Positions 21,434 through 34,033 of a stretch of 34,033 nucleotides of DNA are shown in pieces. The notes under the pieces are model-generated. The model searched no databases, was not told the origin of the DNA, and saw only the letters and a program-made list of their open reading frames with translations. Position numbers and translations under genes: made by a program. The stretch lies in sequence record DRR723986_24382; one strand, written 5' to 3'. Position 1 is the stretch's first letter, and every line of letters starts with the position of its first letter.

Positions 21434-23476
21434 TTATACGGTGACTCCAATTATGCAAACATCATCAAGTTGCTCAAGAGAGCCTTTCCAGTTGTTAAAG
21501 GCTTCTAAAATGATGCGTTTTTGTTCCGTCATGGGCTTGCCCTGAACAGACAGTATTAACTTTTTAAAGTTTGCCGCTTTCAGCTTCTTTCCCTTGTCAC
21601 CACCAAATTGGTCGGTGTAGCCGTCAGTAAAAATATAAACGCTATCTCCTTTATTTACTTGCAATTCATGACTCGTAAAATCGGAAGGATTGTCAAAGAC
21701 ACCTACTGGTTGCTTATCACCTTTAATTTCTTCTATTTCATTAGAGTTTTTACGAATGATCCAAAGCGGATTGTGGGCTCCTGCATATTTCAAAGTAGAA
21801 CCTTCTAAACTGCATAATGCCATGTCCATCCCATCTTTTACTTCGTCATCAGACTTCTCGAATTCTTCTATTATCAGCTCTCTTGTTTTATCGATAATTT
21901 CACCAGGGTCTGATAATCCAAACTCTTTTACGCTTCTGTTTAAACCGTTATTGCAAACAACTGAAACCATAGCGCCTGGTACGCCATGTCCAGTACAATC
22001 ACATGCCGCAAATAAGACTTTGTTTTCAATTTTATCCATCCAATAAAAATCGCCTGCAACAATGTCTTTTGGTATGTATAGTATGAAATTATCAGGTAAC
22101 AAAGTATTTACCTTTTGTGAGGATGGTAAAATGGCTGATTGAATGCGTTTAGCGTAGGTAATTGAATCGGTAATTTCTTTGTTTTTAACTTCTAATGTGG
22201 CGTAGGCAAGGTCAACAGTTTCTTTTTGTTCAGCAATTAGTTTTTTCTGTCTTTGAGATATTTTTAATCGATTCAAAATAAAACCGCCGAGTAAAAGAGC
22301 TAGTGCAAGCCCTGCATAGAGGATATAAGATTGTTGTTTACGTTTTGATGACTCGGCTTTTTCTGCCAATAGTTCGGCTTCCTTTACTTTAACAGCTTCT
22401 GCTGCGGCAATACTGTCTTTAGCTGATTTTAAACCGTATTCAAAAGCGTATTTTTGATCAAGCATTTCTTTTCGATCGTTTTCATCCTCTAAAGTGTCTT
22501 GATAAGCGATAAAGTTCTCGAAAGCATCCAGGGCTTTTCCTTTATTATTTAAATTCTTGTGCGCCAAATATTGGAGGCGATATGATTCTGACAGAATTCC
22601 TATCATACCATAACTGACGCCTATTTCGCTCGCTCTTTTCGCAAAAGAAATAGAAGGCGCATATTTATTTTGAAGCTGTAGCGTTGTTGCTATGTTGTTT
22701 AAACTGTTCGCTAAAACAGAGAAATTACCAAACTCTTCGCAATATTTAACGGACAACTGAAAATGTTCAATTGCTTTTTCATGTTCTCCAAGATCTTTAT
22801 AAATCAAGCCTTGGTTATTATAAATAGCAGCGTATTTGGGACCTGCATTTATTTCATTGTAAATGATTATACACTCGTCAAAATAAAACATGGCTGAGTC
22901 GTATGAAGCAAGCTCCATATAGGCGAGACCCAGGTTATTGTAACACATGGCGGTGCCATCCAAGTTTTCGTGTTCTATGTAAATATTAGCCGCACTATCA
23001 AGGTATGTAATTGCGGTATGGTATTCTTTTTGGGTATTGTAAAAAATACTCAAACCATTAAGCGCTCCAGCAATTCCAATAGGGTCACCTAATTCTTCTC
23101 TTATTTTCAAGCATTCAATCGAGTACTTTTGAGCCGCTAGCATATCACCTTTATGGTTACTCACTCCTGCAAGTATGTTGAGGGCTTGAGCCTTCCGATT
23201 CAAGAAAAATTGACGTTCAGTTTCAGAGAGCTCCTTTTTAAGATTGACCCCAGCTAGACTATCTATTCTCCTATTTAAGTCAAAATCCAAATTCGGATCA
23301 AAAGGGTAAATGATGTCGTCCCATTTTTTCCAAGCTTTAATAACTGTTGAATCATGGGTGGCTTCTGCAATTTCCTTTTGCAATAGGGTTATTTCTTCTT
23401 CCTGTTCAGGAGATAACTGACCATAACTGAATAATGATGTGAAAAATAGAAGGAAGAATAGACTTTTCAGGCTCAT
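21434..23476 (-). CDS. Membrane sensor: periplasmic TPR repeats, TM helix, SpoIIE/PP2C phosphatase domain
   Basis: YNNLG TPR units; YAKRIQSAILP, PKDIVAGDFYW, DCTGHGVPGA, DGMD, TDGYTDQFGG, DDVCIIG. Confidence 0.88.
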   Translation of the reverse strand: MSLKSLFFLLFFTSLFSYGQLSPEQEEEITLLQKEIAEATHDSTVIKAWKKWDDIIYPFDPNLDFDLNRRIDSLAGVNLKKELSETERQFFLNRKAQALNILAGVSNHKGDMLAAQKYSIECLKIREELGDPIGIAGALNGLSIFYNTQKEYHTAITYLDSAANIYIEHENLDGTAMCYNNLGLAYMELASYDSAMFYFDECIIIYNEINAGPKYAAIYNNQGLIYKDLGEHEKAIEHFQLSVKYCEEFGNFSVLANSLNNIATTLQLQNKYAPSISFAKRASEIGVSYGMIGILSESYRLQYLAHKNLNNKGKALDAFENFIAYQDTLEDENDRKEMLDQKYAFEYGLKSAKDSIAAAEAVKVKEAELLAEKAESSKRKQQSYILYAGLALALLLGGFILNRLKISQRQKKLIAEQKETVDLAYATLEVKNKEITDSITYAKRIQSAILPSSQKVNTLLPDNFILYIPKDIVAGDFYWMDKIENKVLFAACDCTGHGVPGAMVSVVCNNGLNRSVKEFGLSDPGEIIDKTRELIIEEFEKSDDEVKDGMDMALCSLEGSTLKYAGAHNPLWIIRKNSNEIEEIKGDKQPVGVFDNPSDFTSHELQVNKGDSVYIFTDGYTDQFGGDKGKKLKAANFKKLILSVQGKPMTEQKRIILEAFNNWKGSLEQLDDVCIIGVTV

Positions 23477-23865
23477 TACGCGTTATTTTTCTTTTTAAAA
23501 TAAAAATGATTGACAAGATGACCTGCTCCAAATCCTGCAAGCGCAATCAGAAACGTGATTCCCATGCCGCGGTCTTCAATTAAAACCATGGGCGGAACCA
23601 ATACCAAAATGGTAACAATTATTCCTGGACCTTTTAGCAAGCTCTTTGGTTTATTGTCTTGAGCTTCTTTTTGGATACGCTCTCGCTCTTGGATTTTTTC
23701 TTGGATCTTTAATTTTTCTGCAGCTGAAATATCACGTCCATCCAATACTATTTTAGCGGCTTGTAGCGCCTCATCTTGAAATCCATCTTTGTCAGTTGTC
23801 AAAATGTAGATCAGCTTTTCATTAGAATGCTGCTCCATTTTTGCTATGAACGGGTTTTCTGACAT
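23476..23865 (-). CDS. Hypothetical membrane protein
   Basis: Two C-terminal TM segments; stop overlaps the next start. Confidence 0.65.
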   Translation of the reverse strand: MSENPFIAKMEQHSNEKLIYILTTDKDGFQDEALQAAKIVLDGRDISAAEKLKIQEKIQERERIQKEAQDNKPKSLLKGPGIIVTILVLVPPMVLIEDRGMGITFLIALAGFGAGHLVNHFYFKKKNNA

Positions 23866-26928: not shown

Positions 26929-27038
26929 ACAATCAAGTTTACTTTGGTTAAATTTAGTACGAATTTTATTAATCCAAAATTGAGCCAAATTGTAAGTTTC
27001 ATTCAATGAACACGACTTTCTATCAAATAGTTAGCATT

Positions 27039-27812
27039 ATGAAAAAACAGTTATCCATAATATTTCTCTTTTTAGGGCTGTCATTTACAGCGAGCGCTCA
27101 ATTACCCAATGGTTCAATTGCGCCAGACTTTACTTTAACCGATAGAGACGGAGTGACGCATCATTTATACAGCTATTTGGCTGAAGGCAAGGTGGTATTC
27201 ATTAAGTTTTTTGCTTGTCATTGTCCTGGATGCTGGTCTTATCATCAAACTGGAAAATTAGAATCGCTACATCAAACTTATGGACCTGACGGAACCGATC
27301 AAATAGTGGTAATCATGTTAGAGCATGATCAAAATAATCCGGAGGCATTTTCAGGAGGTGGAACCTATACTCAGGGCGACTGGGAGGCCGGAAATACGGT
27401 GCCAATGGTGGATGTTGAAGGAACGGATAGAACAGTATTTGATGATTATAATTTGAATTATTATCCCATGGTGATGAAAGTGTGTTCAGATAAAACCACA
27501 GAATTGATGTCGACCAATTATACGGTGCAAGAGTTGTTTGATGAAGCAGATGATTGTGCTGGAAATTTGAGCCTTAATCCAAATGAATTGAGCGGTGCAA
27601 TTTATTTTAATGCGTCACTTCAGCAAATTGTATTGGATGGGTTTGATCAAATTGAAAGTGTTAGTGTTTACAATTCAATTGGACAACGGGTAATGTATAA
27701 ACAGCTTCCAGAAAATCAAACTCTGAATACATCAGAATTGACTTCCGGACTGTTTATCGTAAAAGTTAATTCTCAGAATGGAACTTTGACTGAGAAAATC
27801 ATTATTAATTAA
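27039..27812 (+). CDS. Redoxin/thioredoxin-fold protein with T9SS type A CTD
   Basis: APDFTLTD, CHCPGC, YYP cis-Pro loop; YNSIGQRV...SGLFIVKV...EKIII CTD; signal peptide from ATG 27039. Confidence 0.82.
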   Translation: MKKQLSIIFLFLGLSFTASAQLPNGSIAPDFTLTDRDGVTHHLYSYLAEGKVVFIKFFACHCPGCWSYHQTGKLESLHQTYGPDGTDQIVVIMLEHDQNNPEAFSGGGTYTQGDWEAGNTVPMVDVEGTDRTVFDDYNLNYYPMVMKVCSDKTTELMSTNYTVQELFDEADDCAGNLSLNPNELSGAIYFNASLQQIVLDGFDQIESVSVYNSIGQRVMYKQLPENQTLNTSELTSGLFIVKVNSQNGTLTEKIIIN

Positions 27813-28756
27813 TCCAAAAAGAAAGGATTCCCATGGCGTTGATGTGGCTTAGGCGGAGGGAAAACACAAACGTTTAGCATCAATTCATGTGTTCCTTTAC
27901 CGTAAGTGCGCAAAGGGTTGGTCATGATGTCAAATGAGTAGCCGATCTTAATCATATTCACACGTGTACTTTCTGCTGGAGAAAAGGCGTATCCCATATT
28001 AAATGCAACCGCGTCAGACATTCTGTAGGATAATCCACCCCAGAGGTACGAGTAACTATTCAGCCAAATATCACCGGCAATATTAAAGTCAAATACCATG
28101 GAAGCGCCATCTGCTTTTAATAAGATGCTTGGTTTTAGATCTATTTTTCGTTGCGCTCTAATGCTGATGTTATAACCCGCTAATACATAGTAATGTCTAG
28201 CCACATTAAAATTGACAGCTTGAACCTCTTGCGGAACCAGGTGAGTGGTTGATATACCAACATAAAGTGGAATAGAAGAGCCGTGAAAATAGATACCCAT
28301 ATTGGCATCCATGATGGTGCCTGAAATTGGATCTGGCAAAATGGGATCGTCATCTGTTTGAGGTGGGATCCATACCGGAGAGAAGCCGACATTGACAATA
28401 CCAAGACCAATTCCTGCGCTAAAGTGCCCAATATTGGTTGGTAAATGATAAGCTCCGTTTAGTGTTAGGGTATTGTTCCGTTGAAAACCAATGGCATCAT
28501 TTGTAAATGATAAACCTACACCCAAATTTTGACGGGGAATATTGGCTTGTACGTTCAGTAAAGATGTGTTGGGAGCATCTTGTACGCGATCCCATTGATT
28601 TCGATAAATGAAAGTGCCACAAATTCCTTTGAACCCTGTTGTAGCCGGGTTGTATGACATGCGATCAAACATGTAATGAGTGAATTGTTTGTCTTGCTGT
28701 GCATGGATGCTGCTCAAAATTAAACAGCTGAATAAAAAAGTTAAGGTTGTTTTCAT
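27809..28756 (-). CDS. PorP/SprF family T9SS outer-membrane protein
   Basis: QQDKQFTHYMF...NPATTG...YRNQW...AP, IGYSFD, GTHELML. Confidence 0.9.
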   Translation of the reverse strand: MKTTLTFLFSCLILSSIHAQQDKQFTHYMFDRMSYNPATTGFKGICGTFIYRNQWDRVQDAPNTSLLNVQANIPRQNLGVGLSFTNDAIGFQRNNTLTLNGAYHLPTNIGHFSAGIGLGIVNVGFSPVWIPPQTDDDPILPDPISGTIMDANMGIYFHGSSIPLYVGISTTHLVPQEVQAVNFNVARHYYVLAGYNISIRAQRKIDLKPSILLKADGASMVFDFNIAGDIWLNSYSYLWGGLSYRMSDAVAFNMGYAFSPAESTRVNMIKIGYSFDIMTNPLRTYGKGTHELMLNVCVFPPPKPHQRHGNPFFLD

Positions 28757-28924
28757 AGTGCTAGATTTGTTTCTAACACTTTATGTTTTGAATTTTAAAA
28801 GGTAACCAGTTGTAATAGAAAAAAATGATTGTAAATGGATGAACTACTTGATAATGAATCCTAAAAAATCCTAATAATTTGAGTTGTTATAGGTGAATAG
28901 TAAAGCGATTATTAAATTAGAGAT

Positions 28925-29344
28925 ATGAAGTATCTAAGTTTTACTTTTTTAATCATGATGATGGTGTCTTGTGGTAACAGCAAAGACGTTAATTTGGATG
29001 ATGATACCGAGCGCAACCCTGAATGGACATTTGAAAATATTGCATTGATCATTCATGATGAATTCCCTGAGGCTTATGACAATTTCATCAATATTTCTTT
29101 CAGTAGAGTAGAGATGAGTATTACCCCAGAGAAAGCCAGTTTTTTAATTCCGACTAAGTATTTTGAAAAGAAACTGACACAAGAAGTGTGTAAAGAAAGA
29201 ACCGACAATGTGGTTGAAAAAATGACTGGATTTAGGGATGGTTGCCAAGAAGTTGAAATAGGGGAGTCGCAAAAATATGCTTGGCACAGTTGGGAAGATA
29301 AGGTAGTGACTAAGGTCACGATTTATTTTGCGATTGGTTGTTGA
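28925..29344 (+). CDS. Hypothetical lipoprotein
   Basis: Lipobox MVSC; converges on the distal end of the cassette array. Confidence 0.65.
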   Translation: MKYLSFTFLIMMMVSCGNSKDVNLDDDTERNPEWTFENIALIIHDEFPEAYDNFINISFSRVEMSITPEKASFLIPTKYFEKKLTQEVCKERTDNVVEKMTGFRDGCQEVEIGESQKYAWHSWEDKVVTKVTIYFAIGC

Positions 29345-29350
29345 GGTATT

Positions 29351-29449
29351 GAAGAAGTATTCGTGATAACCGTAGGGATTTTTTAGGGCTAAGGATAATT
29401 GGGTGAGAGTCTGGAGGCGTTTTAGAATGGTTTTTTGTTAGGTGCTGTT
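29351..29449. repeat. attC-like site 1 (truncated, left arm missing)
   Basis: Ungapped match to 32701-32794 (69/94 identical by hand count); ends GTTAGGTGCTGTT. Confidence 0.75.
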
Positions 29450-29451
29450 TT

Positions 29452-29955
29452 CTACTTTGAGTTGACTTTTGAGTCTACACCAAAATAATTCACTTCCTTA
29501 AATGATTCAGAGAGGGGTAGTTGAATTATGGATTGCATTTTCACATAAGCACCAAGACCGCAACCCTCACTAGTGTCTTGGGCGTATACATTTAGATCTC
29601 CGTTTTCAAAAGAGTAACTCGATTTAATTTCAAGACAAATTCCCCAAGCGAAGAAGTATTCATCAATTATAAGGCTGTCAGAATTCCTGAAGATTTGAAT
29701 TGAATCACGCTTTTTATTGTTTTTTCCGTAGGTAGAACTGAACTGTTTTGTAAACTTTGAGTCATTCCAAATGGAATCTTCTAAATAAATGCATTTAGTT
29801 GATATCCCGTCTGAATTCCTGATTTTCTGAACATCTAAATCCAATATTGATTCTAATGTATCTTGGTCTTGAATAGTTATAGATTTCTCATTATTATTCG
29901 GGCCGCAAGAACTTAAAATTAGAAGCGCATAAATAAAATTCAGAGTTCGATTCAT
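29452..29955 (-). CDS. Cassette E: hypothetical lipoprotein
   Basis: Lipobox LSSC. Confidence 0.7.
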   Translation of the reverse strand: MNRTLNFIYALLILSSCGPNNNEKSITIQDQDTLESILDLDVQKIRNSDGISTKCIYLEDSIWNDSKFTKQFSSTYGKNNKKRDSIQIFRNSDSLIIDEYFFAWGICLEIKSSYSFENGDLNVYAQDTSEGCGLGAYVKMQSIIQLPLSESFKEVNYFGVDSKVNSK

Positions 29956-29967
29956 TTGTCAAATTGT

Positions 29968-30137
29968 AATAGCACTCAACGTTTGAGTAAATATAATGCT
30001 TTCGAATAAGTTCCAGCATAGACGTTATGCAATTTTTAGATGCCGCCCTCGCTTTTGCATAGCTTCAGCGAAGCAAGGCGTTAGTGCGTTGACCATGCCG
30101 TATTGCCTTTTAGCATAGTTCTATGTAAGGTGTTGTT
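29968..30137. repeat. attC-like site 2
   Basis: AACGTTTGAGTAAATATAATGCTTTCG...AATTTTTAGATG...TTTTAGCATAGTTCTATGT, shared with 33439-33580. Confidence 0.8.
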
Positions 30138-30161
30138 TTAAGCTTATGTAGAACTGTTCTT

Positions 30162-30902
30162 CTATTGAAAAGTCAGATAATTCTTTTTCCAATAGTTTTC
30201 AATGAATTCCCACTTATCACCATAAAAACCGGGTGCTCTCGGTTCAGAGTAAACTTCTATTTCCTTTGTGCCAATATTATTAAATACAAATATACCGTTG
30301 CGTTCTTCATCTTCACAGCCAATTCCTTCGATAAAGCCTAATTGAACGACTTCGAAATTTTCAATAATGAATAATTCACTGCCCCAGTTGAAATCGGAAC
30401 ATCCACTTCTATGATATGAATAATAGAAATTGGTATTCCCTATTTTATTTGGTTCGGGATAGTTGTCGAAGGCTTTTATGTTATTGAAAGCATTGTTTTT
30501 TTGATCAAATACTATCAATTGACTTATACCACCAATATTTGTCATTTGATGAACTCGAATATCTAATATTCCATTTCCAGTGAAGTCTTCGAATTGAAAA
30601 CCAGCAGTGGCATAATCGAAATGTGAATAAAGAGTGTCGAGCAAATGATTAAGGATGGTCAGTTTCATATCACATTCATTGTCTTCCATGTTTTGAAAAA
30701 CGTAAAAGTTTTCTACTCCGATTTTCAGGGTGTCAGAATCATAAATACAGTCGTATGTGGAAACAGTCGGAGATTGAGAAGTAATTGTGTCCGAAATGGT
30801 TAATGGTTGGTCAATTTCATTGTTAATTTCATTGCTGATTTCAGACTTTGATGAACATTGGACGAACAATACTAAAATGATAATATACTTTATGGACTTC
30901 AT
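30162..30902 (-). CDS. Cassette D: hypothetical lipoprotein with a DxxGxGxxD (FG-GAP/XAC2610-like) motif
   Basis: Lipobox-like FVQC; EDFTGNGILD. Confidence 0.68.
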   Translation of the reverse strand: MKSIKYIIILVLFVQCSSKSEISNEINNEIDQPLTISDTITSQSPTVSTYDCIYDSDTLKIGVENFYVFQNMEDNECDMKLTILNHLLDTLYSHFDYATAGFQFEDFTGNGILDIRVHQMTNIGGISQLIVFDQKNNAFNNIKAFDNYPEPNKIGNTNFYYSYHRSGCSDFNWGSELFIIENFEVVQLGFIEGIGCEDEERNGIFVFNNIGTKEIEVYSEPRAPGFYGDKWEFIENYWKKNYLTFQ

Positions 30903-31005
30903 TTTGTCAATCTACAGATTGTTAGATTCGAAAGCACATTAAAAGAGTGAAATAAGATATTCCAATTATTATTTGTTGGTCAAGAGTGATTATGAGATTT
31001 CAGGT

Positions 31006-31173
31006 AATAACGCCTAATGTTTGAGCAAAGCTAGCAATTTATTGTGGTGTCAAGTAGGAGGGAAACCCTAATTCTCGGCGCACGTGTCGGCCATCCGGAT
31101 TTGGACACGTCATAAGAGGTCTATGTGTGGATCCGGGTGGCGATTAACTGTAGATACTGTGTTGTGTTTAGTT
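31006..31173. repeat. attC-like site 3 (divergent interior)
   Basis: Same end geometry as the other sites (AATAACGCCTAAT-GTTTGAG ... GTTGTGTTTAGTT) but an unrelated GC-rich interior. Confidence 0.6.
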
Positions 31174-31194
31174 TTTCACCACTCCCTTAAGTTC

Positions 31195-32601
31195 CTACAG
31201 ATTGTTTAGTTCTTCTTTCAATTCCGAGAGTGTAATTTCTTCAAAAGCAATGTCTTGAACTTCCTTTTCCGAAATAAGTTTCTTTTTAAAGAATGTTTCA
31301 ATTTTACCATCAGTATTTTTCATTCCAAAAATGGTTACCCATTCACCGTTTGGCACGTTCGGGAAATAATACTTTCCATCTTCATTCCTTGCTTGAATAA
31401 CTGAGTTAATTTCTGAGAAGATCATTTTGAATTCGATTTGATCACTCACTTTATAATCTACAAAAAGGTCTGTTTTATCTTCTTCTTCTAAATAAAGGAA
31501 TCGATCACAGTTGATCCAGCCAAGTTGGGCAACATTGAAGATGTAATATTCTGCTTCAGCTTTGTCCATACTCGTAATCGGCACATCTTCAAATTCGGCA
31601 TATTTTTCATCAAAAGATTTCATATAATTTTCTCGTTTTTCAAATTTCTGCACCGCTCTACCTTCAGTAATTAGCATGTATCCTTCTCTCTCAATTATTT
31701 CTCCGTGCATGTTTTTACCTGGTTCAAGTTGTGGAATGTTGTATAAAAAGCGTTTGACTTCTGCTTTAGTAGAATCAGAAATTGGGGTATGAATTCTTAC
31801 ATTCTTTATGTAGCCTTCTTTCGTTATTTTCATGGCACATTCAATTCCAAAAGTATTCCAGTCATCAAATACATTAGGATTAAGATTAGATAGTTTGGTT
31901 TTGTTCTCAGTTGTTGTTATCTCTGAAATTGCTTTTTCCGACCAATCAAATGATTTTACATAGAAATCAATAGGATTCCAGTAGTAAACATCTTTATCTC
32001 CAAAATCTTTTGGTTGGAAGTCGTATTCGGTTGAGTCGTCATGTTCAGGATATAGCCATCCATAATTACCTAATGTAAGTGTCTTTTGCATTACATTTCC
32101 TGATTTATCAAGATTCCAGTCCATAACGGCATCATCAGATGATTGCTCTCCTGCGTAGAATAGCTGCATATCATCTTTTTTGTAAGATTTTGTAGGAAAA
32201 TGAACTACCAAATCATTGCCATTAACAATTTCAACTTCGTTTCCGTTTGATTCTGCAGCGATATAGAGCATACCTCCAGATTCGAGTAGTTCATCACTTG
32301 AAGATGTTGAGAGATCTGCAAGGGCAATTTCTGTTTTAGTGTAATATTCCTCAAGTTGAATAGTTACAGTTTCTGTAACTGGGGTACCATCATGAAATTG
32401 AAAAGAGTTTGATTCGATAAATATTCGAGTTCCTGATTCTCCAAAAATTGTGGTATCCCTAGTTGGGTCAATATTAAACTCAGAAGACATAACATTTTCT
32501 TCCAGCTCTTCAGAAGATAAAGAGGTGTCTGAAATTGATGAGTTACCTGCACAGGCCGAAAGGAAGATTATTAAGGGTAAAATAAAATGATACTTAGTCA
32601 T
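31195..32601 (-). CDS. Cassette C: Bacteroidota lipoprotein (LESGGM / LGWINCDRF family) with a possible TonB-C-like central insert
   Basis: Lipobox LSAC; motifs LLESGGMLYI and YIFNVAQLGWINCDRF. Confidence 0.72.
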   Translation of the reverse strand: MTKYHFILPLIIFLSACAGNSSISDTSLSSEELEENVMSSEFNIDPTRDTTIFGESGTRIFIESNSFQFHDGTPVTETVTIQLEEYYTKTEIALADLSTSSSDELLESGGMLYIAAESNGNEVEIVNGNDLVVHFPTKSYKKDDMQLFYAGEQSSDDAVMDWNLDKSGNVMQKTLTLGNYGWLYPEHDDSTEYDFQPKDFGDKDVYYWNPIDFYVKSFDWSEKAISEITTTENKTKLSNLNPNVFDDWNTFGIECAMKITKEGYIKNVRIHTPISDSTKAEVKRFLYNIPQLEPGKNMHGEIIEREGYMLITEGRAVQKFEKRENYMKSFDEKYAEFEDVPITSMDKAEAEYYIFNVAQLGWINCDRFLYLEEEDKTDLFVDYKVSDQIEFKMIFSEINSVIQARNEDGKYYFPNVPNGEWVTIFGMKNTDGKIETFFKKKLISEKEVQDIAFEEITLSELKEELNNL

Positions 32602-32664
32602 AAGCTTTTGGGTTAATAACGTGGCGTTTATTTGAAGATGAAAGACCTGTTAAAAGGTAATCTC

Positions 32665-32799
32665 AATTAAATACAAGGTTTGGTTAAATATAATGCTTTC
32701 GCTGAAGTATTAATTTTGATGGTGAGAAATTTTTGGGACTAAGGATAATCGGTGGAGAGCTTGGAGGCCTTCTTGCATGGTTTTATGTTAGGTGGCGTT
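32665..32799. repeat. attC-like site 4
   Basis: GTTTGGTTAAATATAATGCTTTCG left arm; right arm GCATGGTTTTATGTTAGGTGGCGTT overlaps the TAA stop of 32788-33438. Confidence 0.8.
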
Positions 32800-33438
32800 T
32801 TCATTCAAGTACTGATCAACTGCCATAGGCTCTGATAGGTACACAAGTTCAAGTGAATTCCAGTCCATCAGAACGAGATTCCAGTTCTTTCCTACTTGAT
32901 TTAAAACCTTTGAAATTCCTGCGTCCTTGAGATTACTAATGTTAGTTAACCAAATTTGGTCAATGATCTGTTCAGAAGTGAACCCATAATAGATTGCAGA
33001 ATAATCTTTTCCATAGGCACTCGTGTTTTCACTTAAAACCCGATAACTTTCGCCATAACCAGTTGATACTATATCGTGCCTTGTGGTGTTCAGTTGACCA
33101 ATCACAAATTCCAATTCAGATTTAGTTATTTGCAACTTATTTAAAGGGTATTTTTCTTCATCCCGGACAGTAATCTTTTTATAACCGGGTTCATCTGGAG
33201 TTGAATCTTTCTGACCAAGTATAACTTCTGCTTGTCCTTTTAAGAATTGTAGATTTTCATGAGGTAAAATTTGAATTTGACAGTAATCGTCTTCATGGTA
33301 AAATATAGTTGCCGAAGAAACATTGAAATTTGGTTTAGGTGGGCCATCACCGGGATTCTTCTGCGGTTTACCAAACATTTTGTGCAGAAGTATTGCTAAG
33401 AGCAAGAGTCCAGTAAGAGCTGCATAAGTTAATCCCAT
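32788..33438 (-). CDS. Cassette B: hypothetical protein with an N-terminal membrane anchor
   Basis: Hydrophobic N-terminus; ATG directly follows the 13-bp cassette end and TAA lies inside the other end. Confidence 0.7.
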   Translation of the reverse strand: MGLTYAALTGLLLLAILLHKMFGKPQKNPGDGPPKPNFNVSSATIFYHEDDYCQIQILPHENLQFLKGQAEVILGQKDSTPDEPGYKKITVRDEEKYPLNKLQITKSELEFVIGQLNTTRHDIVSTGYGESYRVLSENTSAYGKDYSAIYYGFTSEQIIDQIWLTNISNLKDAGISKVLNQVGKNWNLVLMDWNSLELVYLSEPMAVDQYLNENAT

Positions 33439-33580
33439 AATGACACCTAACGTTTAAGTAAATATAATGCTTTCGCAGCAGCTTCAATATGGGCGCTAGG
33501 AATTTTTAGATGATGCTCAGTAAGCGCACGAGATGGTTGAGCCTCCAGCATTTTAGCATAGTTCTATGTTATGAATAGTC
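33439..33580. repeat. attC-like site 5 (best preserved)
   Basis: ACCTAAC ... GTTATGA ends; imperfect long palindrome (TATAATGCT/AGCATTTTA, GCTTCAA/TTGAGC, GCGCT/AGCGC). Confidence 0.82.
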
Positions 33581-33588
33581 TTTTACTC

Positions 33589-33999
33589 CTATAAACTGCG
33601 TGATATTCTTGCATTTCTTATTAAATAGTACTGTGGAATATATTGAGGAATAACTGAAGAATCCTTTAGAGTTGTGGTGCGTTCAAACAATTGACCTTTT
33701 ACTCTTACTTTTTTGTGTTCCATCTTATCAGGAAAATCATAAAGTCCTTCTATATAATAAGAACCTTTTTTTGCAATTATCAGTACACCTCCCTTTGCTG
33801 ATTCTGCTATACCTACAACATTTATTTTTCCTTGATAAATTATACTTGTCGACCAAGCTGGATAATCATAAAGTGTATCAGAGTATGAAATATTTTCATT
33901 TTCAACTAGTATTGTTTTACAACTACTTATAGATGAGGCTAACCACAGAAATAGAATAAATGTAGATAATTTAATGCTAGCTCTAAGTGAATTATTCAT
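33589..33999 (-). CDS. Cassette A: hypothetical lipoprotein
   Basis: Lipobox ISSC; the ATG lies inside the cassette end GTT-ATG-AATAATT. Confidence 0.68.
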   Translation of the reverse strand: MNNSLRASIKLSTFILFLWLASSISSCKTILVENENISYSDTLYDYPAWSTSIIYQGKINVVGIAESAKGGVLIIAKKGSYYIEGLYDFPDKMEHKKVRVKGQLFERTTTLKDSSVIPQYIPQYYLIRNARISRSL

Positions 34000-34033
34000 A
34001 ACTTTCGTGTAAAATTAGGCAATTTTTAGATTG
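33990..34033. repeat. attC/attI-like site 6, cut by window edge
   Basis: AATTATTCATAAC-N7-TAAAATTA then GCAATTTTTAGA, a motif also at 30029; its AATTTTTAGA core is also at 33501. Confidence 0.55.

Follow-up and report, generated by a model that had tools for sequence, protein, structure and literature searches.

The DNA stretch DRR723986_24382 (34,033 nucleotides, analysed as a whole and referred to here as the window) carries at its right end, between coordinates 29345 and 34033, what is very probably the recombinase-distal end of a chromosomal integron-like cassette array belonging to a marine member of the Crocinitomicaceae (Flavobacteriales). Five cassettes lie in the same orientation with the minus strand as the sense strand, each consisting of an open reading frame (ORF) followed by its own site. 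A sixth site is cut by the window edge, and the array runs on to the right. An initial annotation had proposed an integron-like array of mobile one-gene cassettes at this position, and three observations bear this out: the start of each cassette complements its own downstream site, the nearest genome carries different cassettes beside the same flank, and a complete genome of the same genus (G005) has 31 sites arrayed behind a tyrosine recombinase gene. The identity of the element is well supported, and the window is a distal, somewhat degenerate piece of one array.

The two ends of each cassette provide the key to its organization. On the minus strand the spacers between the ORFs begin with a YTAAC-like sequence at or after the preceding stop codon, and end with AAAC followed by a GTTAG-like sequence just before the next ATG. 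The AAC-like and GTT-like spacer ends noted in the initial annotation are therefore present, as is its arrangement of stop codons in or beside one end of each site and start codons beside the other. The cores at the start of the sites (R'') are ATAAC, CTAAC, ACAAC, CTTAC, and CTAAC, and the cassette starts (R') are GTTAT, GTTAG, CTTGT, ATTAG, and GTTGA, with the first base deviating in two; overall, the site ends in both the window and G005 fit the integron bounds RYYYAAC (inverse core) and GTTRRRY (core). A cassette opens with 10 nucleotides (nt), the GTT core and five variable nt, whose reverse complement stands at the start of the cassette's own downstream site (five nt and a CTAAC-like core). 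With the register set by the GTT and AAC triplets, and for site 3 by alignment to the covariance model described below, 22 of 25 variable and 20 of 25 core positions in the window are complementary between a cassette start and its own site. None of the other possible pairings among the 120 partner permutations (mean 13.2) scores as high as the true one, whereas the opposite ends of a single site, compared as a control, agree at just 9/20 positions. Complementarity of a cassette start with its own site is the classical argument for integron cassettes.

The same pattern is seen in G005, where a gene for a 380-amino acid (aa) tyrosine recombinase is followed by 31 same-strand site cores over 29 kb, spaced 323–3122 bp apart. 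The same stretch also has two core-like matches on the other strand, and no site cores were found in the 20.7 kb upstream or the ~70 kb downstream of the array. Complementarity extends to 119 of 130 variable positions in the 26 scorable consecutive pairs, 19 of which are perfect; 5000 permutations gave a mean of 52.4 (standard deviation 5.9) and a maximum of 75, and array context gave 51/140. The core variants also covary, with GTTAT accompanying ATAAC and GTTGT accompanying ACAAC.

Two internal duplications in the G005 array have ~100% identity over a stretch that starts precisely at the G of one R' and stops at the following R', and only background identity beyond it. Because each spans GTT to GTT with the downstream site inside, a unit composed of an ORF and inverted repeats only is ruled out, as is one composed of an ORF and its upstream site. 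The mobile unit extends from the GTT of one R' to the next GTT and comprises five cassette-specific nt, one ORF, and that ORF's own downstream site of 100–190 nt. Cutting would occur at G|TT, and in the excised circle the first bases of the cassette would complete its own R box.

The sites in G005 are 161–187 nt long, and 28 of the 31 were aligned, the other three being omitted because the 5'-end pattern missed them. The AAC and GTT triplets are invariant in 28/28, and RNAalifold gives a consensus in which an unpaired spacer (6 x 5 nt) separates an R box of 4 bp from an L box of 8 bp, where compensatory changes are seen at five of the eight pairs (for example, GC in 15 sites and CG in 8; CG in 16 and UA in 7). 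The consensus L box lacks a single-base bulge, and the only asymmetry is in the spacer (top strand, 6 x 5 nt; minimum free energy [MFE] folds of the bottom strand, 2 x 3 nt). Mean MFE values are −21.8 kcal/mol (top) and −26.4 kcal/mol (bottom). A site reads, in order, R'' (nnnnnYTAAC), unpaired spacer, L'', a variable middle, L', and a spacer ending in AAAC.

A covariance model built from the G005 sites only (R1) identifies members of this family in the window. On the minus strand it matches site 3 with 78.1 bits (E 1.3e-19), site 5 with 19.2 bits (E 0.0012), and site 2 (29968–30144) with 14.6 bits (E 0.022, or 0.0074 with filters off); site 6 is found as a 5'-truncated match with 13.9 bits (E 0.033), or 8.4 bits with filters off. 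Three window sites are therefore below E 0.01, site 2 only with filters off. Site 3, which the initial annotation had left unlinked to the others, is the window copy most like the G005 family. R1 matches are present in all eight genus genomes, numbering 133, 90, 64, 37, 27, 13, 10, and 8, the largest count being that of G005. This genome contains at least three separate arrays (contig C1, ~1771107–1780446, 2144229–2158495, and 2331558–2356462) and its sole recombinase orthologue lies beside the third; the first two resemble CALINs (clusters of attC sites lacking an integron integrase).

Shared sequence motifs link the window sites to each other. The 17-mer TAAATATAATGCTTTCG, reported in the initial annotation as common to sites 2, 4, and 5, is present in three exact copies, all on the plus strand (29988, 32685, and 33459), where 0.31 are expected and none of 100 shuffles contains three or more; no further copies occur in the window at up to three mismatches. 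A right arm common to sites 1, 2, 4, and 5 was likewise recovered, as four copies of 35 nt in which the non-reference copies are each 80% identical to the reference, and an ungapped alignment of sites 1 and 4 spans 99 nt at 75% identity (previously given as 69/94). The TAAATATAATGC subtype has too few copies for covariation, and an Rfam search of 28500–34033 gave no matches. The copies are not scattered singly: within the window the site motifs are confined to the array and all lie in one co-oriented series, and most of the listed R1 matches in G005 cluster in arrays.

The recombinase at the head of the G005 array has the Pfam Phage_integrase domain together with a SAM-like domain. It scores 233 bits against NCBIfam NF040815 ('tyrosine recombinase/integron integrase', XerA type), over the 220-bit cut-off, and 202 bits against TIGR02249, under the 265-bit cut-off and in two pieces that skip model positions ~180–240. 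Compared with solved structures it is closest to XerA (4a8e, 151.8 bits; 5hxy, 134.6 bits), followed by VchIntIA (2a3v, 127.4 bits), and Foldseek gives the same order, with XerA first (5hxy, E 5.8e-18) and IntI4 next. The alignment to 2a3v is split, with 34 residues of the recombinase facing 76 residues of VchIntIA (IntI4), at what is presumably the location of the IntI-specific domain. The IntI-specific insertion was thus looked for in this enzyme and is not present, and from its sequence we classify the array recombinase as Xer/IntI-like and without the IntI-specific (I2) insertion. The predicted structure (mean predicted local distance difference test score 83.7) has an extra N-terminal alpha/beta domain at residues 6–73. 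This domain matches no Pfam family, and its only structural look-alikes in the Atlas are unnamed Bacteroidota clusters.

Full-length orthologues of this recombinase (57–100% identity) are present in five of the eight genus genomes, and an identical protein is recorded at NCBI under Paracrocinitomix mangrovi. The best 120 relatives listed are 54% or more identical across no less than 94% of the length, under names that include Crocinitomicaceae, Crocinitomix, and Vicingus; homologues also occur in Cytophagales, Chitinophagales, and Marinilabiliales-like genomes. Separate Xer-like genes encoding proteins of ~300 aa are found in the nearest genome (G001) and in the other genomes searched.

These properties bear on whether the window simply contains an ordinary integron or CALIN, in which a canonical IntI with I2, encoded elsewhere, acts on standard attC sites. 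The RYYYAAC and GTTRRRY ends and the layout of R box, spacer, and L box are as in attC, and the passages of Ghaly et al. 2021 (PMC8618304) and Ghaly et al. 2022 (PMC9668308) that enumerate phyla with integrons include Bacteroidota among them. Nevertheless, the TIGR02249 cut-off is reached in none of the eight genus genomes, where the best matches are the insertion-less family aligned in two pieces, and the enzyme that adjoins an array has the 34-residue stretch in place of the 76 of VchIntIA. In addition, the part of the IntegronFinder 2.0 article (PMC9024848) concerned with Bacteroidetes describes only In0 elements known earlier and names a single complete integron, that of Salinibacter ruber. 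We therefore consider an ordinary integron very improbable. The initial suggestion that the sites are unlike textbook attC is only partly upheld, as their ends and box layout are fairly textbook, and it is the enzyme without the IntI insertion that is non-canonical.

The G005 recombinase gene is oriented with its array, and the junction between the two is informative. At 40–52 nt past the recombinase stop codon, the arrangement GAATAAA-stem-TTTATTC-N3-4|GTT is conserved in four genomes (G005, G056, G105, and G033), with unrelated sequence following the GTT. The outer arms GAATAAA and TTTATTC of this palindrome are conserved, and the inner stem differs yet stays complementary in all four. From these sequences the junction appears to behave as an attI-like insertion point, and the palindrome could be a terminator or a binding site, or serve as both. 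This junction is seen in the relatives and is not within the window.

It could also be argued that the sites are not mobile, but are regulatory repeats (terminator and promoter modules) or repeats resembling repetitive extragenic palindromes (REP) or miniature inverted-repeat transposable elements (MITE), with the gene differences between genomes arising by ordinary insertions and deletions. The family is certainly abundant, with 133 R1 matches in G005, the window sites fold poorly, and a promoter-like box precedes each ATG. Specifically, the 3' arm of every site contains a TAnnTTT(A/G) box ~20–45 nt before the next ATG, represented by TATATTTA in the window (29988–30004, 32685–32701, and 33459–33475) and by TAGCTTTA in G005 (alignment columns 195–202), and this box is similar to the −7 promoter consensus of Bacteroidota, so that a site might drive expression of the cassette that follows it. 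Yet regulatory repeats do not predict that five variable nt before an ORF complement five nt after it, that duplications are bounded exactly at successive GTTs, or that a junction adjoining a recombinase gene is followed by unrelated sequence past GTT in four genomes, and the motifs in the window occur only in the array. An explanation by non-mobile repeats thus seems highly unlikely to us.

Comparison with the nearest genome shows that the cassettes differ between close relatives. G001 shares 42% of the window's 31-mers and is 97% identical to it across window coordinates 27000–29440, after which the DNA is different and only short site fragments of the array region recur. The 139-aa gene that flanks the array is also beside the array in G001, with one residue of the 139 different in translations compared by reading. 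Past this flank, the G001 contig continues with sites and ORFs that differ from those of the window, and the five window ORFs are all missing beside the flank in G001. Its terminal cassette protein is unrelated to that of cassette 1 in the window (E 43). The comparison of cassette content with a close genome, as the initial annotation had advised, therefore favors an array whose contents change. Synteny of the flank was uninformative in five other genus genomes, which contain only pieces at 67–87% identity.

Several observations weigh against our interpretation of the window as part of a cassette array, or against its being mobile. Some concern folding, as the five complete window sites fold no better than shuffles. 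The z-scores are +1.44/+1.41 for site 5, +0.03/+0.89 for site 4, and +0.97/+1.17 for site 1 (both strands), and −0.74 for site 3 and −0.33 for site 2 (plus strand only). The initial annotation had described site 5 as an imperfect long hairpin, a claim that folding does not support, as with an MFE of −8.9 kcal/mol the site is equalled or surpassed by 185 of 200 shuffles; site 1 has an MFE of 0 to −1 kcal/mol. Even in G005 the mean fold z-score is modest (−1.25). A hairpin conserved across copies is indicated by the covarying L box in G005, but not by the window sites, and several of the L-box pairs of site 3 are non-standard in the R1 alignment. R1 scores sites 1 (7.6 bits, E 0.56) and 4 (7.2 bits, E 0.71) at noise level with filters off, and with the same setting it gives an off-array match at 23415–23494 on the plus strand that scores as high as site 2 (13.1 bits, E 0.019). 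Two of the five cassette starts are CTT or ATT rather than GTT, and the outermost R', that of site 1, is lost and reads AAC where GTT is expected. There is no recombinase gene in the 34-kb window and no recombinase orthologue in G001 or G074, nor was one found in G119. Finally, the break between the window and G001 (window 29345–29446 compared with ~1020–1125 of a locus on G001 contig C281) falls in the middle of site 1, at ~29401, and not at GTT; by reading, the flank-side half is ~90% identical and the other half much less so. A mid-site break is not predicted by whole-cassette exchange at GTT, but is what homologous recombination between related sites would give.

The off-array match at 23415–23494 has ATAAC and GTTAT ends ~80 nt apart and lies far from the array. 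It is probably a chance match.

Many of these points are also what would be expected of a decaying relic, an array built by the same system but no longer mobile here, in which case it would be CALIN-like and the differences from G001 would have arisen by homologous recombination between similar sites. Sites 3 and 4 have degenerate R' triplets and site 1 has lost its own, suggesting decay, and the weak folds, the broken L box of site 3, the mid-site break, and the absence of a recombinase orthologue from G001 and G074, although both have sites, all agree with such a state. Decay can only be slight, however, as complementarity still extends to 22/25 positions, and the finding that 0/5 cassettes are in common with G001 despite the 97% identical flank indicates recent turnover. 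The absence of the recombinase is also weak evidence, since G001 is fragmented (93% complete, in 400 contigs; G074 is 98% complete) and contigs often end right after the recombinase gene (22/40; see below). We regard a relic as less likely than not, and it bears on the present activity of the array and not on its identity as an integron-like array.

G074 contains a small array without an adjacent recombinase. Its 329-aa neighbor was considered as a candidate integrase and rejected, as by reading its translation is without recombinase motifs.

Recombinase relatives are not restricted to this genus. In a collection of species representatives, 112 stretches encode them, and 22 of the 40 examined loci with a near-full-length match have less than 1 kb downstream, with a contig end wherever the range was checked; contigs ending after the recombinase gene are what downstream repeat arrays would cause in short-read assemblies. 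Among the 18 loci with more than 1 kb downstream, three have strongly repeated 12-mers there. In Winogradskyella eckloniae and Flavobacterium sp. SM15 the repeats downstream of the recombinase homologues start with YAAC and end with CGTT, and complementarity between a cassette start and its site was read for one cassette in each. The remaining loci with long downstream sequence have no exact repeats, and the association of recombinase and array may therefore not be universal. In 80 loci from outside the genus R1 gave no matches. Site sequences are specific to a lineage, and arrays in other genera were thus found from direct repeats instead.

Searches with the 17-mer were of little help in this respect. 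Among 201 family genomes, matches with up to one mismatch occur in 18, nearly all of them single and at a rate near that of a reversed-pattern control, which makes this search uninformative. In metagenomes 113 stretches have one match each, and only one of 80 fetched loci (L137) is closely similar to the extended left arm; R1 found no matches in the three metagenome loci searched (L137, L127, and L110). Most of the metagenome matches are chance.

The features of the array are listed in Table 1.

Table 1. Coordinates of the window features making up the cassette array and its flank
Feature	Coordinates	Strand	Comments
Flank gene, 139 aa, no Pfam family	28925–29344	+	Convergent on array; stop overlaps degenerate outer end of site 1
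Site 1, terminal (array-distal), own site of cassette 1	29345–29446	−	R'' agcacCTAAC at 29437–29446
Cassette 1 ORF, 167 aa, no Pfam family	29452–29955	−	N-terminus lipoprotein-like by reading
Site 2, own site of cassette 2	29971–30134	−	R'' aacacCTTAC; R' GTTGAgtgct opens cassette 1
Cassette 2 ORF, 246 aa, no Pfam family	30162–30902	−	
Site 3, own site of cassette 3	31006–31173	−	R'' taaacACAAC; R' degenerate, ATTAGgcgtt
Cassette 3 ORF, 468 aa, no Pfam family	31195–32601	−	
Site 4, own site of cassette 4	32668–32796	−	R'' gccacCTAAC overlaps ORF stop; R' degenerate, CTTGTattta
Cassette 4 ORF, 216 aa, no Pfam family	32788–33438	−	
Site 5, own site of cassette 5	33439–33580	−	R'' tattcATAAC; R' GTTAGgtgtc opens cassette 4
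Cassette 5 ORF, 136 aa, no Pfam family	33589–33999	−	ATG within R' of site 6 (GTTATGaata)
Site 6, 3' end only, cut by window edge	33990–34033	−	R' fully complementary to site 5 R'' (10/10)

All five minus-strand ORFs of the initial annotation are present, and neither they nor the 139-aa flank ORF match a Pfam family (0/5 for the cassettes, 0/6 in all). The spacers had been described as 135–170 bp long, but the ORF coordinates give a range of 107–292 bp, with values from left to right of 107, 206, 292, 186, and 150 bp, and a further 34 bp after the start of the last ORF. The 107-bp spacer (29345–29451) adjoins the convergent flank ORF. By reading, a lipoprotein-type signal is present at the start of five of the six ORFs (the five cassettes and the flank gene), and one has a membrane anchor. 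Genus relatives of the cassette 3 protein are distant or partial, the best scoring 87.5 bits at 26% identity and none exceeding 37% identity. About 66 nt (32602–32667) separate the site 4 R' from the cassette 3 ATG; this stretch contains an ACGTTAT-like remnant and may be the leftover of a lost site or cassette. Further to the left the flank has two genes related to type IX secretion, one for PorP/SprF (27809–28756, minus strand) and the other for a redoxin that carries a Por_Secre_tail sorting domain (27006–27812, plus strand), in keeping with a Bacteroidota host.

The known systems most like this array are the sedentary chromosomal integrons, such as the Vibrio cholerae superintegron with its V. 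cholerae repeat (VCR) attC sites. These too have long co-oriented arrays of mostly orphan single-ORF cassettes, with an imperfect palindromic site after each ORF that has AAC and GTT ends and an unpaired spacer between its R and L boxes. In both, the cassette boundary is at GTT, the cassette start complements its own site, the sites are homogeneous within a genome and lineage-specific, cassettes are duplicated internally, and an attI-like point lies beside the recombinase gene. Unlike in sedentary integrons, the array enzyme described here is without I2, is under the TIGR02249 cut-off, has an extra N-terminal domain of ~105 aa, and is co-oriented with the cassettes; the sites are long (161–187 nt in G005) and have no single-base bulge in the consensus L box, and the host belongs to the Flavobacteriales. 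In the 'inverted integrase' integrons of the Treponema denticola type the recombinase points with the cassettes and the insertion site is past its 3' end, and their enzymes are true IntI with the additional domain. The gene orientation here is the same as in those integrons, whereas the enzyme lacks that domain.

The array enzyme also resembles the Xer recombinases (archaeal XerA, XerC/D), which provide its best sequence and fold matches. A dif-like site is ~28 bp long with two 11-bp arms, and is recombined by the housekeeping XerC/D. The array enzyme differs in being a distinct paralogue linked to cassette arrays, and its sites are structured repeats of 100–190 nt and not one short dif.

The window, the small G074 array, and at least two further G005 arrays without an adjacent recombinase are similar to CALINs, which in the definition given by Cury et al. 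2016 (PMC4889954) are clusters of attC sites, recognised by matches to the IntegronFinder attC model, without an integron integrase. In that survey, IntI is recognised by intI_Cterm, and any recombinase close to attC sites but without intI_Cterm was always accompanied by fewer than three of them and was not accepted as IntI; G005, by contrast, has 31 sites behind an enzyme of the type without intI_Cterm. As the same article and Ghaly et al. 2022 (PMC9668308) relate it where they cite Messier and Roy 2001, IntI is defined by the additional domain near patch III, and Ghaly et al. 2022 regard this domain as necessary for cassette recombination. Ghaly et al. 2021 (PMC8618304) likewise define IntI by it. 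We refer to the system as integron-like, and not as an integron, because its enzyme does not have the additional domain by which IntI is defined. A literature search gave no description of cassette arrays with an I2-less recombinase in Flavobacteriales, although survey supplements may list CALINs there. In the account of IntI evolution in PMC7790495, the enzyme went from double-strand to single-strand recombination by acquiring the I2 helix.

In the mechanism that we propose, a dedicated tyrosine recombinase, represented in the relatives by the 380-aa Xer/IntI-like enzyme with its Bacteroidota-specific N-terminal domain, co-oriented with the array and without I2, would excise a unit as a circle whose first bases pair with its own R'', and would re-insert the circle at the attI-like site 40–52 nt downstream of its own gene. 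The substrate would be a folded single strand, and the system may be active in the strain from which the window derives. More tentatively, and with the chances somewhat below even, the arrays could represent a second integron-type capture lineage that is widespread in Bacteroidota and certain to include Flavobacteriales, in which an I2-less Xer-like recombinase acts on folded hairpin sites at G|TT, the N-terminal domain perhaps replaces I2, and each site may have a −7-type promoter that lets all cassettes be expressed; such a lineage would be either an ancestral intermediate or an independent invention.

As judged from their sequences the cassettes encode orphan, apparently secreted or lipid-anchored proteins, and the arrays may thus diversify the cell surface. 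If our interpretation is correct, gene-cassette capture extends to a major marine and environmental phylum, and domain-based searches under-count such platforms. The minimal needs for recombining hairpin sites would then become a testable question.

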